Below are positions 2,688 through 25,388 of a stretch of 64,000 nt of DNA, piece after piece (position 1 is the first letter of the stretch; each line of letters opens with the position of its first letter). Made by a program: the position numbers and the translations under genes. The stretch lies in NCBI GenBank assembly GCA_019634625.1, contig JAHCBA010000028.1:3283-67282 (forward strand), written 5' to 3'. Source of the DNA: Verrucomicrobiia bacterium. Lineage in GTDB: Bacteria; Verrucomicrobiota; Verrucomicrobiia; Limisphaerales; CAIMTB01. Under the pieces are notes generated by a model that saw nothing but the letters and a program-made list of their open reading frames with translations, had not been told where the DNA came from and ran no database searches.

Positions 2688-4847
2688 ATGCATTCGCTCC
2701 CCTGCCTCCGCTATCTGATCGGGCATGCGGACGCGATCCGCGCGGTGGCGTCAAGTCGCGCGACGATCCCCACCGGACTGCTTCTGGTTCTCCTGACCTC
2801 GATTGCCCGGAACTACGATCAGAGCTGGATCGGCGAGCATCCGTTTCTATGGATCTTCGGACCGCTTCTGTTCTCCCTGGTTTCCGGGACCTGGATCTTC
2901 CTCGTCACCTACGCCGGCTGGATCCGCAGGGGCTGGACCTCCGACACGCGAGCGACGTCCGTCTGGAGGGACTGGCCGACCTTCATGGGGCTGTTCTGGC
3001 TTACCGCGCCGGTGGCGTGGTTGTACGCCATTCCCGTGGAACGATTCCTCGATCCGGTGGGCGCCGCGCGGGCAAACGTCACCCTGCTGTCGCTCGTATC
3101 CCTGTGGCGCGTGCTCTTGTTCGCCCGGGTCATCCAGGTCGTTTCCGGAGTTCGATACTGGACTGCGCTCGTCTGGGTGCTGGTGCCCGTCTCGATTGAA
3201 GCAGTGGCCGTGCTGGTCCCCCTGGGCATGGGGCCGGCCATCGCCCGCGGAATGGGAGGTCTGCGCCACTCTCCAGCGGAAACCGTCATTCTCGAAGCGG
3301 TCAGTGTGGCCACGTTGGTCGCCATGATCACCGCCGGAATCTCCCTGGTGACGGCTTTCGTGCTCCCCCGCCCGACACGCACCGAACGTCTCCCCGCGCC
3401 CATGGCCGACCGGCTTCCCGGCACCTTCCTCGCCGGCGCGACGGCATTCTGGTTGGCCGCAGCCGTCCTGGTTCAACCCTCCGCCCGCCGCAGTGCCCAG
3501 GTGGAGGAACGGGTTCGTACGGAACGGTACGCGGATGCCCTCGCCTTCCTTCGCAACCATCGACCCGGCGACTTCGCCCCGGCCCGACCGCTGCCGCCCA
3601 AGCCGTACGAACATGCGACCTTCCAGCACCAGGCGGGGCTCCTCGCGGAGGCGCGGGAAGACGAACCCCGCTGGATTCAGGAACACCTGATTCGCCGCCT
3701 CGACGATCTCGTGGACAGCACACGGCCCATCCGCAGGCGCGCGGCTGGGACTGCCGGCGATCCCGCCCCGGCCACCTTTACCCCCATCCAACCGCACCAC
3801 GGGTACTGGCAGAAGCCCGAGGATCTCCACCGGCTCGTCACCCGGGGCGTCGGACGGCTCTCCTGGCTGGCTGCATGGCGTCAGCAGAACCGCGAGTGGC
3901 TCGAGGCCTGGGCCGCCCTGGTGAACGACGCCGCCCGCGGAAGGCTTCGGAGACGCTACGATGGGGCCGTCACCCGCCTGTTCGACACGCCTTCGACGGC
4001 CCTGCCTCGCTTCGACCTCCTCGCCGGCCGCCCGTACAACCGCCTCACCGTCCAGACGTCCCGGGGTTGCCCGCGTCATTGTGAATTCTGCGCCGCCAGC
4101 CTCCGCATCACCCGGGGCTATCAGCAGAAACCCGTGCCTCGCGTCCTTCAAGAAATCCGCGAGGCCCGCCGCCATGTCCCGATCCCGTTCCTCGAACTGG
4201 CGGACGACAACACCTTCCTGAATCCGGACTGGTCCCGGACGTTCCTTCGGGCCATGGTCGAAGAGAACCTCCACTGGTTTACAGAAACCGACCTGTCGGT
4301 GGCCGAAGATCCGGACCTGTGCGATCTCCTCGCCGCCTCAGGGTGCCGGCAACTGCTCATTGGATTGGAAAGTCCCGACGGCGAGGCCCTTGCCGGCATG
4401 GATCCCACGGATTGGAAACGGAGACGGGCCCCGGCGGCGCTGCGGGCCATCGATGCCCTGCAATCCCGCGGAGTCAGCGTCAACGGTTGCTTCATCCTCG
4501 GACTGGATTCGCACACCCCGGATGTCTTTCCGAGGATTCTCCAGTTCGTCCGGTCCTCCGGCCTGGCCGAAGTTCAGGTCACTGTCCTGACGCCGTTCCC
4601 CGGCACGCCCCTCCATGACCGCCTGCGTCGCACGGGGCGGCTCCTGGCTCCGCGCTTCTGGGACCGCTGCACCTTGTTTGATGTCGTCTACCGGCCGGCA
4701 CGAATGACGGTCACGGAACTGGAGTCGGGCCTCCGCTGGCTGATGAAGGAACTCTACTCGCGACGGGAAACGGACGATCGTCGCCGTGCCTTCACCCGGC
4801 AGCGGAGGCCCTCCGGCTTTCCAGTGGCGGATGATGCACCGGCGTGA
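2688..4847 (+). CDS. Radical SAM protein with an N-terminal polytopic membrane region (possible fusion)
   Basis: 719-aa ORF. The C-terminal half has QTSRGCPRHCEFCA (CxxxCxxC), LIGLESP and FPGTPL, as in class-B-like radical SAM enzymes. The N-terminal ~235 aa contain at least 5 long hydrophobic segments. There is no in-frame stop between the two parts, but an internal non-ATG start cannot be excluded. Confidence 0.7.
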   Translation: MHSLPCLRYLIGHADAIRAVASSRATIPTGLLLVLLTSIARNYDQSWIGEHPFLWIFGPLLFSLVSGTWIFLVTYAGWIRRGWTSDTRATSVWRDWPTFMGLFWLTAPVAWLYAIPVERFLDPVGAARANVTLLSLVSLWRVLLFARVIQVVSGVRYWTALVWVLVPVSIEAVAVLVPLGMGPAIARGMGGLRHSPAETVILEAVSVATLVAMITAGISLVTAFVLPRPTRTERLPAPMADRLPGTFLAGATAFWLAAAVLVQPSARRSAQVEERVRTERYADALAFLRNHRPGDFAPARPLPPKPYEHATFQHQAGLLAEAREDEPRWIQEHLIRRLDDLVDSTRPIRRRAAGTAGDPAPATFTPIQPHHGYWQKPEDLHRLVTRGVGRLSWLAAWRQQNREWLEAWAALVNDAARGRLRRRYDGAVTRLFDTPSTALPRFDLLAGRPYNRLTVQTSRGCPRHCEFCAASLRITRGYQQKPVPRVLQEIREARRHVPIPFLELADDNTFLNPDWSRTFLRAMVEENLHWFTETDLSVAEDPDLCDLLAASGCRQLLIGLESPDGEALAGMDPTDWKRRRAPAALRAIDALQSRGVSVNGCFILGLDSHTPDVFPRILQFVRSSGLAEVQVTVLTPFPGTPLHDRLRRTGRLLAPRFWDRCTLFDVVYRPARMTVTELESGLRWLMKELYSRRETDDRRRAFTRQRRPSGFPVADDAPA

Positions 4848-23756: not shown

Positions 23757-23921
23757 CGCCGCGGATCAAACCCGTCCCCACCCCCCGACGTCCACGCCGA
23801 AGTACTCCCGCGATCTCCCCGACCTGACCCCCGTGATCCGGTTCCCCACCCACCTGGACGCTCGAACCACAGCGCCATCGCCGCCAGGAACTGTCCCACG
23901 AATGGCTTCAAAAAGAATGGC

Positions 23922-24332
23922 TCAGCGTCTCGGGAACAGGTGGTTGGCAATGATGCCAGCAAGTCCGGCAACCGCGGTTCCGGCAATCAATGCGAGCAGG
24001 ACCGCATCGGAAAGGAGGAAACGTAACTCGAACTCCAGACCCCCTGCCGAGAGCATTCGCCCCTCGCCAAGTGCACCGTTCAGGATCAGCACGACGTAGA
24101 GGGCGATCACCCACCATTTCGCAAGTCGGAAGATCTTGTCGGCATACACCCTGCGAAGCTCGATCAGCTCATTGAATTCTGTCAGTTGAGCGGCCCGTTC
24201 ATCCAAACTCAATCGCTCTTTCAGGGCCTCCTCTTCTCTCGGGCCAAACCGGCTTGCAAGGGCCTGATCGGGATCAGGCTCGTGAATTTCCCGCAGCAGT
24301 CGTTTCGGATCGGTGCCGCTTTCCTTTGGCAT
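23922..24332 (-). CDS. Hypothetical 136-aa protein, charged N-terminal half plus two C-terminal TM helices (candidate toxin partner of the Panacea gene)
   Basis: The ATG at 24332 is 3 nt after the upstream gene's stop (TGA-ccc-ATG). The sequence is MPKESGTDPKRLLREIHEPDPDQ...KIFRLAKWWVIALYVVLILNGAL...AVLLALIAGTAVAGLAGIIANHLFPRR. It lies in a visibly lower-GC segment. I recognise no family. Confidence 0.5.
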   Translation of the reverse strand: MPKESGTDPKRLLREIHEPDPDQALASRFGPREEEALKERLSLDERAAQLTEFNELIELRRVYADKIFRLAKWWVIALYVVLILNGALGEGRMLSAGGLEFELRFLLSDAVLLALIAGTAVAGLAGIIANHLFPRR

Positions 24333-24335
24333 GGG

Positions 24336-24893
24336 TCAGACATGGGCCGGCAATTTCGCCTTGAAGAAGTTTCTGATTTCTTCCTGCGGTATGTCGGTTC
24401 CAGAAATGTCCTGCCCCTTCAGTTCTACCCAGGCGTGCTTCCAAGGCGTGCCATCCTGGTGGGTCAAGGCAGACAGTTCGCCTGCGGTGAACCTGCCGTA
24501 AATGCTCCAGATCTGCTCTAACAGAGCGACGGCAAAATCGTCGTCGGGAATATCCGGTGATGATGAAACGATCCGGTACTTTCCACCCGAACCGCTGAGG
24601 ACCACACGCTCGACCGGGCGCTTGATCGGATCGCGACCGTATCGCTTGAAGGCATGATACACTTCTGGAAAGACAGGTCCGAACTTCCAGGCTTCCGGGC
24701 GTTCATTGACGAGCGGTGCGTCTGTGATCGCAAGGTGCCAACCATGTGCGAAGTACATGAGCTTGAGGAGCTTCATCAAGGTAAGCTCCTTCCCGTGCTC
24801 CTCCGCAATCCGGAGGAGTCGGTTTGCGACTGCTAGAGACGGGTGTGCCATGTCAAGTGCAACTTGCGCTTGTGATTCATATGACGTCAACAT
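24336..24893 (-). CDS. DUF4065 / Panacea-domain protein (SocA/GepA-like, PanA-type antitoxin)
   Basis: LTLMKLLKLMYFAHGWHLAITDAPLVNERPEAWKFGPVFPEVYHAFKRYG matches the T.MKLQKL.Y..Q.W.L......PLF.E..EAW..GPV....Y pattern of DUF4065. The start is taken at ATG 24893, with ATG 24851 as an alternative. The upstream 124 residues of ORF 24336..25265 are not protein-like. Confidence 0.8.
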   Translation of the reverse strand: MLTSYESQAQVALDMAHPSLAVANRLLRIAEEHGKELTLMKLLKLMYFAHGWHLAITDAPLVNERPEAWKFGPVFPEVYHAFKRYGRDPIKRPVERVVLSGSGGKYRIVSSSPDIPDDDFAVALLEQIWSIYGRFTAGELSALTHQDGTPWKHAWVELKGQDISGTDIPQEEIRNFFKAKLPAHV

Positions 24894-25263
24894 CCAACCC
24901 TGCTTGCTCTGCCGATGGGTGGAATTGCCCAACGACAAGATCTGCGCTTCGGCGCCAGGTGCCAGAATCGTTCCGCGTCTTGCTTCCGCACAAGCTCCCG
25001 GGACTGCCTCAGCAGCACCCCAGCCGAATTCCCCAACTCCGAAGCCACGCGCCCGGCGTCCTGCCACTGGGCCATGAGGTGCGAGGCGCAGGGGTGGCGA
25101 AGGCGGACATTCCTCTGCGTCGCCGCACCGTGGAGGCCGCCGCGTCCCCCGTGACGATGCCGGCATCGAGGTGGACGGCGTCCCGGGACAGCCGTCCGAT
25201 AAACTTACGGGATGACCCTGGACGGCACGGGCAAGCGGCGGGCGCAACCGCTGCCCGGGCCGC

Positions 25264-25312: not shown

Positions 25313-25388
25313 TGGTGGAGCCGAGGGGACTCGAACCCCTGACCCCCACAATGCCATTGTGGTGCTCTACCAACTGAGCTACGACCCC
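25313..25388 (-). tRNA. tRNA-Ala (anticodon GGC), CCA encoded
   Basis: The reverse complement is GGGGTCG-TA-GCTC-AGTTGGTA-GAGC-A-CCACA-ATGGCAT-TGTGG-GGGTC-AGGGG-TTCGAGT-CCCCT-CGGCTCC-A-CCA. This is a 76-nt cloverleaf with the G3:U70 alanine identity pair and anticodon GGC in a 7-nt loop. Confidence 0.92.

Follow-up and report, generated by a model that had tools for sequence, protein, structure and literature searches.

A probable PanAT toxin-antitoxin cassette with a T3-type membrane toxin in a Verrucomicrobiae genome

Two adjacent genes in a 64,000-nt stretch of Verrucomicrobiae DNA (hereafter, the window) most probably constitute a horizontally acquired type II toxin-antitoxin (TA) cassette of the PanAT class, in which a membrane toxin of the PanT T3 family would be neutralized by the Panacea-domain protein PanA. 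For the locus itself, the analysis covers the domain carried by PanA, the family to which the toxin belongs, the recurrent pairing of the two genes, the predicted membrane topology, and a base composition that looks foreign. The cassette is real but ordinary, its sole oddity being a 2-residue deletion in the second transmembrane (TM) helix of the toxin, accompanied by a change of the GGTT motif to AGTA.

Gene layout, the antitoxin, and the genomic surroundings

Both genes are located on the minus strand. The panA open reading frame (ORF; 24336-24893) encodes 185 aa when read from the first in-frame ATG (24893) to the TGA stop codon at 24336-24338. The true start is likely the ATG at 24851, which gives a 171-aa product beginning with MAHPSLAVAN; this choice is based on the alignment, in which the N-termini of the homologs share the M-x5-AVAN pattern. 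[quoted passage not shown] Direct reading of the sequence shows that the two genes are joined by the junction TGA-ccc-ATG (24330-24338, minus strand), with a 3-nt spacer, an arrangement consistent with translational coupling. The identical 3-nt gap separates the antitoxin and toxin genes in the homologous loci L077-L083. An earlier note, made from the DNA sequence alone, had described two ORFs at these positions, with the downstream gene starting 3 nt after the stop codon of a PanA-like gene, and this description was accurate, down to the peptide strings it quoted, all of which were found.

The same note had recognized a DUF4065 signature in the upstream gene and proposed a search with PF13274 as a check. 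In this search, PanA matched the Panacea profile with 72.9 bits (cutoff, 25.7; E = 5.3e-20), covering profile positions 1-113 of 113, and the domain (SocA_Panacea, DUF4065) maps to residues 42-152 of the 185-aa product (24438-24770, minus strand). The best NCBIfam match of PanA is SocA_antitoxin (NF047745; 118 bits, E = 3.5e-34), which does not reach the equivalog cutoff of 190, and in PHROGs, PanA matches phrog_1281 (E = 4e-41). Panacea is the only Pfam domain of PanA, with no match to Peptidase_M78. No PADLOC model matches PanA or its 136-aa partner, and a sequence search of the PDB returned nothing for either protein. A scan of genome contigs with PanA alone as the query retrieved 2 loci.

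The span of panA and panT coincides with a low-GC islet of about 1 kb (~23900-24900, no strand), in which the composition profile drops to ~56% GC vs ~65-70% in the flanks. This dip points to horizontal acquisition of the gene pair. A tRNA-Ala(GGC) gene detected with ARAGORN (25313-25388, minus strand) lies 420 nt upstream of panA, so that the islet context previously suggested for the pair is real, and this tRNA gene is a plausible former integration site of the cassette. As a candidate att site, the 3' end of the tRNA-Ala was rejected because it has no second copy anywhere in the window, and a 19-nt match between the T-arm of the tRNA and the toxin ORF was discarded as a chance similarity, given that it does not extend further and sits inside conserved coding sequence. 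An integrase-like sequence adjoining the cassette gives the impression of being degraded; a Pfam search of the neighboring sequence gave no support for an integrase remnant. A scan limited to sigma-70-type consensus detected no promoter-like or terminator-like sites. The neighbors of the cassette in the window are housekeeping genes, including those for UbiA, CCA/polyA polymerase, and an oxidoreductase, rather than a defense island.

The partner of PanA as a member of the PanT T3 family

The 136-aa partner yielded nothing significant in searches of Pfam, NCBIfam, PADLOC, and PHROGs, and the lack of a family model in these collections accounts for its orphan appearance. A word-indexed homology search with this single sequence as the query returned only the self-match. 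The same type of search with an 80-sequence profile produced 10 matches, being swamped by TM words, and exhaustive searches and a tighter profile were used instead. Exhaustive HMMER searching with the partner identified 174 cluster representatives at E <= 1e-3, which provides the conserved homologs sought by the remote-homology check proposed in the earlier note, and the profile search with the tighter profile identified 566 clusters. The window protein reached 110 bits on a family HMM from whose construction it had been left out; none of 500 shuffled sequences exceeded 8. In plasmids and phages, tblastn found no match to the window PanT or to the family member P0038, and a fold search of BFVD yielded nothing below an E of 1.

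The family could be anchored in the literature through P0205, which is encoded in GCA_003022385.1 behind a PanA gene, at a distance of 81 nt, and exactly matches the Dataset S1 entry for the filamentous cyanobacterium CCP3 (cluster T3, order A|T, gap 81) of Kurata et al. (2022). The window PanT is 41% identical to P0205 over 82 aa (BLASTP, E = 5e-15), and on the family HMM each of the two proteins exceeds 110 bits (shuffle maximum, 8). Three more NCBI-derived members, traced with a view to a second cross-match to Dataset S1, all come from assemblies newer than the paper. Cluster T3 includes PanT(Esc. col.), which is toxic, is neutralized by its own PanA, and both depolarizes and permeabilizes membranes (PMC8832971); the link of the window protein to this toxin runs through the clustering of Kurata et al. 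and the single exact cross-match (CCP3) rather than through direct alignment. A charged N-terminus followed by C-terminal TM helices is the architecture stated for T3 and T12 (PMC8832971), and the window protein combines a charged region, aa 1-66, with two hydrophobic helices, as judged from hydropathy and the AlphaFold2 (AF2) model. Judging from sequence similarity, then, the window PanT is a member of the already catalogued PanT T3 family. The earlier statement that the partner could be assigned to no family holds for the curated HMM libraries but not for the literature (PMC8832971), and its description as uncharacterized, and of the pair as possibly new, is not supported, the family having been catalogued as T3 in the same paper and also having remote kin in RmrT(D5).

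Composition, hydropathy, and the AF2 model agree with the previously noted layout of 136 aa, in which the N-terminal half is charged and the C-terminal part forms two TM helices. The N-terminal region (aa 1-66; 24135-24332, minus strand), predicted to be cytoplasmic, contains 12 K+R and 16 D+E residues, and in the AF2 model is mostly one long helix running into TM1. It is followed by TM helix 1 (aa ~67-88, IFRLAKWWVIALYVVLILNGAL; 24069-24134, minus strand; from hydropathy and AF2), with a Trp, W74, that is invariant across the family alignment A1, and by a short periplasmic loop (aa 89-109; 24006-24068, minus strand) that is predicted to form a beta-hairpin (AF2 strands 93-96 and 99-102) and differs in length between family members in the alignments. 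TM helix 2 (aa 110-133; 23934-24005, minus strand) is, per the consensus, the most conserved segment of the family, SDxVLLALIGGTTxxVxGLFxIVANYLFPKR. The overall pLDDT of the AF2 model is 85.5, with helices at residues 23-87 (pLDDT 85-97) and 109-132.

It is in TM2 that the window PanT departs from its relatives. The spacing from SDxV to N[YH]LF is 22 residues, compared with 24 in 153 of the 158 members, and the short form is found in 3 of the 158, that is, in two members besides the window copy. Moreover, the site occupied by GGTT or close variants in most of the family reads AGTA, which is unique to the window PanT. The other conserved positions R60, Y63, W74, G86, F105, L107, V111, T119, G123, and F133 are retained. 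The GGTT/24-residue criterion for TM2 was derived in the present analysis and is not a published one, so the window PanT still counts as a member, albeit an atypical one; the toxicity of this copy could be altered or lost as a result of the shortened TM2 and the AGTA sequence.

Conserved pairing with Panacea and relationship to known toxins

The neighborhood survey suggested by the earlier note showed that the association with Panacea is recurrent. Among 68 metagenomic loci retrieved by toxin motifs only, 59 were assessable, and in 50 of these, a Panacea gene lies directly upstream of the toxin gene on the same strand; Pfam's own model confirmed 49 of 51 upstream ORFs as Panacea. Look-ups of gene calls likewise placed PF13274 upstream of the toxin in all 8 contigs with sufficient room. 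The pair is found in metagenome-assembled genomes (MAGs) of Planctomycetota, Cyanobacteria, Desulfovibrionaceae, and others. In six of the remaining loci, a diverged copy of the toxin is preceded by an ImmA/Peptidase_M78 gene, and such swapping of one TM domain between PanA and ImmA partners is a signature of a TA toxin. Some of the family loci adjoin defense-type genes, encoding GmrSD_N, AAA_15/21, and Methylase_S (L086), HsdM (L083), BilD_N (L077), and a KAP NTPase (L007).

[quoted passage not shown] Comparison of alignment A1 (the window family) with alignment A3, which includes Kita RmrT(D5), using hhalign gave a probability of 99.0% (E = 7.6e-18, 94 columns), and Kita gp33 itself matched the family HMM weakly, at 23.4 bits; its shuffled versions reached at most 12.0, and reversing the sequence lowered the score to -1.6. 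The similarity lies in TM-rich sequence, where composition may inflate scores, but the shuffle and reversal controls argue otherwise, and the TM2 motif SDxV...V.V.GL...LF is common to Kita RmrT and the window family. We consider the PanT family to be remotely homologous to RmrT(D5), as suggested by these profile matches. The RmrTA (RosmerTA) system of Kita and the window pair also have in common that the antitoxin gene comes first and that the genes are tightly spaced or overlapping. Rosmer antitoxins are ImmA/IrrE (Peptidase_M78) proteins that often carry an HTH. The Kita antitoxin, RmrA(D25) (YP_009301393.1), is an ImmA/M78 metalloprotease, whereas the window antitoxin is a Panacea protein without M78, so the window pair is not a Rosmer system, M78 partners being present at other loci of the wider toxin family. 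NetFlax D5 would be a direct partner of Panacea, to judge solely by the algorithm and by how its nodes are numbered. Given that the partner recurs beside PanA and is homologous to validated membrane toxins, the TA reading put forward in the earlier note is well founded.

Several known systems help to place the cassette. In PanAT of Escherichia coli STEC O31 (PanA, WP_000287252.1; PanT, WP_000019185.1), as in the window, the gene for the Panacea antitoxin precedes that for a small toxin whose N-terminal region is charged and whose TM helices lie toward the C-terminus, and the expected mechanism common to both pairs would be membrane depolarization and permeabilization, neutralized through complex formation. 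The window copy differs in its origin, a high-GC Verrucomicrobiae genome, and in its atypical TM2 (2 residues shorter, with AGTA). PanAT of Bartonella apis/choladocola (T12, equivalent to NetFlax D11; WP_077993242.1) shows the same design, with a membrane-depolarizing toxin neutralized by PanA, although its PanT belongs to a different toxin cluster than the window protein (T12 rather than T3); homology between T3 and T12 was suspected but not established by Kurata et al. (PMC8832971). The model that has Panacea contacting the toxin N-terminal region and the pre-TM helix comes from the Bartonella system (PMC10440598). SocAB of Caulobacter crescentus, the type VI TA system that includes the founding Panacea/DUF4065 protein, has the same antitoxin domain (PF13274) as the window pair. 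SocB is a soluble toxin targeting DnaN, with SocA acting as a ClpXP adaptor, whereas the window toxin is a membrane protein that matches no soluble toxin family, which places the pair outside SocAB. HokB and TisB of type I TA systems are small inner membrane proteins that collapse the membrane potential, an activity that PanT may be expected to share, and HokB served as a phenotypic comparator for PanT membrane toxins (PMC8832971). However, HokB and TisB are ~30-50 aa proteins with a single TM segment and antisense RNA control and lack sequence similarity to the window PanT, which, at 136 aa, has two TM helices, a long cytoplasmic helix, and a protein antitoxin.

Mechanism, alternative readings, and significance

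Toxicity, pore formation, neutralization by direct binding, and a role in phage defense or element maintenance are extrapolated from relatives. On this basis, panA would be translated first, with translation of panT probably coupled to it via the 3-nt junction. PanT is modeled as a helical hairpin in the inner membrane with an N-in/C-in topology, and each TM helix is bordered by positive residues on the cytoplasmic side. Soluble PanA would bind the cytoplasmic N-terminal helix or the pre-TM segment of PanT and thereby keep it inactive; the N-terminal region is the predicted PanA-binding region by analogy with the PanT(D11):PanA model and mutagenesis (PMC10440598). Free PanT, by contrast, would oligomerize in the membrane, dissipate the membrane potential, and permeabilize the membrane, leading to a shutdown of all macromolecular synthesis.

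The module might serve chiefly as an abortive-infection phage defense, with PanA being a sensor or latch that frees the toxin upon a phage cue, so that the cell is killed or arrested. This reading concerns the biological role and is compatible with the TA mechanism. In Kita, the homologous toxin domain, together with ImmA/M78 (RmrA), provides anti-phage defense against Bas54 and Bas59, Kita gp32 matches the PADLOC RmrA models, family loci L086, L083, L077, and L007 carry adjacent defense-type genes, and, in the NetFlax study, Panacea is proposed as a sensor. Set against this, a defense phenotype has been reported for no PanA:T3 pair, the window neighbors are housekeeping genes, and neither protein has a PADLOC model, so that we regard a primarily defensive role as possible but, on balance, lean against it. 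Because the T3/D5 domain alternates between Panacea and ImmA-M78 partners and often occurs among restriction and defense genes, its pairing with PanA could make up an abortive-infection module that phage would trigger and in which PanA would do the sensing. The window copy, with its unique, shortened AGTA TM2, could then be a functionally shifted variant with changed oligomerization or pore properties; we offer this combined reading tentatively and consider it rather unlikely.

The TM2 features could instead signify decay, the cassette being a remnant with an attenuated or inactive toxin that persists only through recent acquisition. The 22-residue spacing, the loss of the near-universal GGTT, the degraded look of the adjoining integrase-like sequence, and the absence of an att repeat would fit such a scenario, but neither ORF is interrupted or truncated, the tight 3-nt junction and the ten other conserved PanT positions are kept, two other members share the short TM2, and AF2 still yields a confident hairpin, making decay unlikely. 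Nor does it seem probable that the 136-aa protein is no toxin at all but rather a membrane anchor or signaling partner of a Panacea protein with another function. According to the legend of Fig. S6, some overexpressed PanA proteins are themselves toxic and not every tested PanAT pair acted as a TA pair; nevertheless, homology to two independently validated membrane toxins and the swapping of the TM domain between PanA and ImmA antitoxin-type partners render this possibility very slight. A mode of action like that of type VI SocAB, with PanA serving as a proteolytic adaptor that delivers the toxin to ClpXP instead of blocking it by binding, is suggested by the best NCBIfam match of PanA, SocA_antitoxin (E = 3.5e-34), yet the score of 118 is well under the equivalog cutoff of 190 and the partner is a membrane protein without similarity to SocB, so we find such a mechanism extremely improbable. 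A type II PanAT cassette with a T3 membrane toxin is thus the reading that we favor.

To our knowledge, almost no TA or defense systems have been studied experimentally in the phylum of the Verrucomicrobiae host. The importance of the cassette beyond annotation is small. A curated family HMM would cut many false calls of novel TA partners in later scans. The comparison of the T3 and D5 toxins provides sequence-level support for the notion that PanA-paired T3 and ImmA-paired RmrT(D5) toxins form one superfamily, and the "hypothetical protein" KF833_16100 of a Verrucomicrobiae MAG, along with several hundred unannotated relatives, can now be labeled as PanT T3-type membrane toxins.

A Panacea gene and its membrane-protein partner

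Both open reading frames (ORFs) of the pair, together with all peptide strings quoted for them in the earlier note, were found on the minus strand: panA at 24336-24893, encoding 185 aa from its first ATG, and panT at 23922-24332, encoding 136 aa. The junction reads panA TGA, ccc, and the ATG of the 136-aa ORF, a gap of 3 nt. The start codon of panA is ambiguous: ATG 24893 adds 14 residues not present in homologues, and the alternative ATG at 24851, which yields a 171-aa product with the N-terminus MAHPSLAVAN, agrees with the N-termini of PanA homologues (M-x5-AVAN). Identification of the upstream gene as a PanA was confirmed by a full-length PF13274 domain in its product (72.9 bits versus a cutoff of 25.7; E = 5.3e-20), which also matched phrog_1281 and, at 118 bits and hence under the cutoff of 190, the NCBIfam SocA_antitoxin family.

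The 136-aa protein produced no match in Pfam, NCBIfam, PADLOC or PHROGs, and the sole match of a word-indexed search was the identical KF833_16100 of a Verrucomicrobiae MAG. When 1.84 billion cluster representatives were searched exhaustively with phmmer, 174 relatives were recovered at E<=1e-3 (10 at E<=1e-10), 75-222 aa in length and all aligned across the C-terminal two-thirds. In the alignment of the PanA-paired family, the N-terminus is variable and charged, a conserved QDIxxRKxYAxKIFxLxxxW segment with the invariant W74 leads into the first transmembrane helix (TM1), the inter-TM loop differs in length, and TM2 is strongly conserved (FxLSDxVLLALIGGTTxxVxGLFxIVANYLFPKR). A tighter profile retrieved 566 clusters at 90% identity, none with a Pfam domain. 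The window protein scored 110 bits on a family HMM built without it, versus a maximum of 8 bits for 500 composition-preserving shuffles. Judging from these comparisons, the 136-aa protein is no orphan; the apparent novelty of its family comes solely from the lack of a curated HMM.

To characterize the gene pairing, we surveyed 68 metagenomic loci by ORF-level HMM analysis; because these were picked with the toxin motifs VANYLFPK and V[LI][LIM][AT]LIGGTT alone, the retrieval was blind to the neighboring gene. A Panacea ORF was found directly upstream on the same strand, mostly overlapping or <=12 nt away, in 50 loci; nine loci had no Panacea upstream, the upstream DNA was too short to assess in seven, and the toxin ORF was uncalled in one (L076). 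Of 51 upstream ORFs checked against Pfam's own PF13274 model (those of the 50 Panacea loci plus the Panacea ORF of L076), 49 were confirmed. According to gene calls, PF13274 lies immediately upstream in all eight members on long enough contigs, the gap ranging from -8 to 211 nt. Panacea genes thus recur beside homologues of the 136-aa protein, and the outcome that the earlier note had named as refuting, that the two never co-occur, is clearly contradicted by the survey and the eight look-ups. The 3-nt gap of the window recurs in two complete metagenome-assembled chromosomes, and in a Desulfovibrionaceae MAG, which encodes the nearest PanA relative in the genome collection (42% identity), a toxin-family member overlaps the 3' end of the PanA gene.

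In the same MAG (L001), a 219-nt direct repeat (2389-2607 and 3567-3785; 99% identical) brackets the PanA/PanT cassette and copies the 3' terminal part of the upstream gene, which suggests either that the cassette was inserted, with a long duplication of the target or by recombination, or that the repeat arose in assembly. In Aerophototrophica (L002), the gene of a PanA homologue 37% identical to that of the window overlaps a following gene (3468-4031) for a 187-aa protein whose TM helices are C-terminal; with 2.8 bits on the T3 family HMM, this protein falls outside the family and exemplifies another kind of membrane partner for a closely related PanA.

Relationship to PanT cluster T3 and exchange of partners

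Kurata et al. (2022) sorted PanA partners into 88 T clusters; membrane toxins among them, including one of cluster T3, were shown to stop transcription, translation and replication, with membrane depolarization and entry of SYTOX Green, and to be neutralized by their PanAs (PMC8832971). Dataset S1 of that study lists, for filamentous cyanobacterium CCP3 (GCF_003022385.1), PanA WP_106920960.1 and PanT WP_106920959.1, assigned to cluster T3, in the order A|T with a gap of 81 nt (PMC8832971). Our family member P0205 (PSR18166.1; GCA_003022385.1, 2501-2926) follows a PanA gene (1889-2419) in A|T order with a gap of exactly 81 nt; given the agreement in assembly, order and gap, P0205 is the CCP3 T3 entry. 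Its score on the family HMM is 128 bits, and it is 41% identical to the window protein over 82 residues (E = 5e-15). Thus, the suggestion that the partner was unassigned and possibly new fails, the family containing a listed T3 entry, whereas its reading as a membrane toxin is probably correct, judging by homology to published membrane toxins.

Most of the nine loci without PanA show other partnerships. In six (L065, L067, L069, L073, L074 and L075), the same TM domain, in diverged form (…VVEVIGLAIIVANYLFPK), is encoded by a gene that overlaps and directly follows one with a HEIGH…EFFANEFAGELLMP motif; Pfam confirmed Peptidase_M78 (ImmA/IrrE) in all four of these upstream genes tested and in the corresponding gene of Gordonia phage Kita. 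L052 and L059 have another upstream partner, neither PanA nor M78, and L070 is a fragment. Within L052 (region 1610-2827) and L059 (region 661-1283), the toxins belong to a subgroup (…IGGTTASVLALFTIVAKFLFP); the upstream same-strand gene of L052 encodes a 195-aa multi-TM protein without a match in Pfam or PADLOC, possibly a third kind of partner, and L059 appears frameshifted. In L077-L081, which come from several assemblies of a single lineage, a gene (636-1901) for a 421-aa protein with HTH_3 and Peptidase_M78 domains (ImmA-like) lies immediately upstream of PanA-PanT, placing both antitoxin-type partners of the toxin family in one three-gene array. Hyperpromiscuity and partner swapping have been described for TA systems (PMC10440598), and the exchange of antitoxin-type partners by this toxin domain is such behavior.

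The ImmA-paired branch leads to a validated phage toxin. A tblastn search of phage genomes with the L067 toxin matched Gordonia phages only, namely ThankyouJordi gp34 (E = 4e-7) and Kita gp33 (E = 1e-3). Kita gp32 (annotation, metalloprotease) and gp33 (annotation, hypothetical protein), which overlap by 4 nt, are RmrA(D25)/RmrT(D5) (YP_009301393.1 and YP_009301394.1), a pair validated in the NetFlax study, in which RmrT(D5) caused rapid depolarization and pore formation and the pair protected against coliphages Bas54 and Bas59 (PMC10440598). Kita gp33 scored 23.4 bits on the PanA-paired profile (shuffle maximum, 12.0; reversed sequence, -1.6), and in a profile-profile comparison the PanA-paired and ImmA-paired alignments matched each other across 94 columns that take in the pre-TM helix together with TM1 and TM2 (probability, 99.0%; E = 7.6e-18).

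By sequence, the window pair can be classed as a PanA with a PanT of cluster T3, with the T3 link running through the CCP3 member and TM2 being atypical, and would resemble PanAT membrane-toxin systems in how it works. It is not a Rosmer system, in which the partner is an M78 peptidase rather than a Panacea protein, nor SocAB, given that its PanA scores under the SocA cutoff and its toxin is unrelated.

Predicted anatomy and mode of action

AlphaFold2 modeling of the window PanT with the family alignment was confident (mean pLDDT 85.5) and predicted one long helix (residues 23-87) that extends from the charged cytoplasmic region directly into TM1, followed by a short beta-hairpin loop (93-102) and TM2 (109-132). 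Basic residues preceding TM1 (RR…K…R…K), a PRR C-terminus and a neutral to acidic loop point to an N-in/C-in hairpin, so that PanA, being without a hydrophobic segment, could reach only the cytoplasmic N-terminal helix. This arrangement would agree with the mutagenesis-backed NetFlax model, where the contacts of Panacea on PanT(D11) lie in the N-terminal region and the pre-TM helix (PMC10440598). In the proposed mechanism, PanA would be translated first, with panT translation coupled to it through the 3-nt junction; PanA would bind and sequester PanT, which, upon loss or displacement of PanA, would oligomerize and depolarize the membrane. For the window PanT, toxicity, pore formation and direct PanA binding are inferred from its relatives.

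This copy has its own peculiarities. The spacing from SDxV to N[YH]LF is 22 residues, versus 24 in 153 of 158 members, only two others sharing the shorter spacing, and AGTA replaces GGTT, which is unique in the member set; the remaining conserved positions are kept. The atypical TM2 could have diverged neutrally, could change the pore, or could leave the toxin attenuated.

Genomic setting and significance

Family loci often adjoin restriction or defence genes (flanks of L086, L083, L090 and L007), including GmrSD_N, AAA_15/AAA_21, type I R-M HsdM/HsdS (Methylase_S) and KAP NTPase. Next to the window copy lie housekeeping genes only, encoding a UbiA prenyltransferase, a GrpE-like protein, an FAD/NAD oxidoreductase and a CCA/polyA-polymerase-type nucleotidyltransferase. 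GC content is ~56% over 23900-24900 versus 65-70% in the flanks, the low-GC stretch matching the extent of panA and panT alone. Neither a sigma-70-type promoter nor an intrinsic terminator was detected by a scan that may not suit this phylum.

Conjecturally, an old integration occurred at tRNA-Ala(GGC) (25313-25388), with the TA cassette as sole survivor. Between this tRNA gene and panA, a minus-strand frame (24887-25140; …RLRHPCASHLMAQWQDAGRVASELGNSAGVLLRQSREL… / ...RLRHPCASHLMAQWQDAGRVASELGNSAGVLLRQSRELV...) resembles the C-terminal box II of tyrosine recombinases; a stop codon precedes it, the N-terminal ~300 aa are missing and no Pfam model matches it, and it may be a decayed integrase of the element that brought the cassette. 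The 3' end of the tRNA is not repeated within the window. A 19-nt direct repeat (17/19 identical) links 24026-24044, inside the panT coding sequence, with 25329-25347, in the T-arm region of tRNA-Ala; considered as an att site, it was rejected and is probably due to chance, as it stops short of the tRNA 3' end and sits in conserved coding sequence.

The window pair adds another example to the already described PanAT class, the partner family itself having been published as T3. That the PanA:T3 pairing serves in phage defence, with the window copy as a functionally shifted variant, appears rather unlikely and, if true, would be of modest interest.
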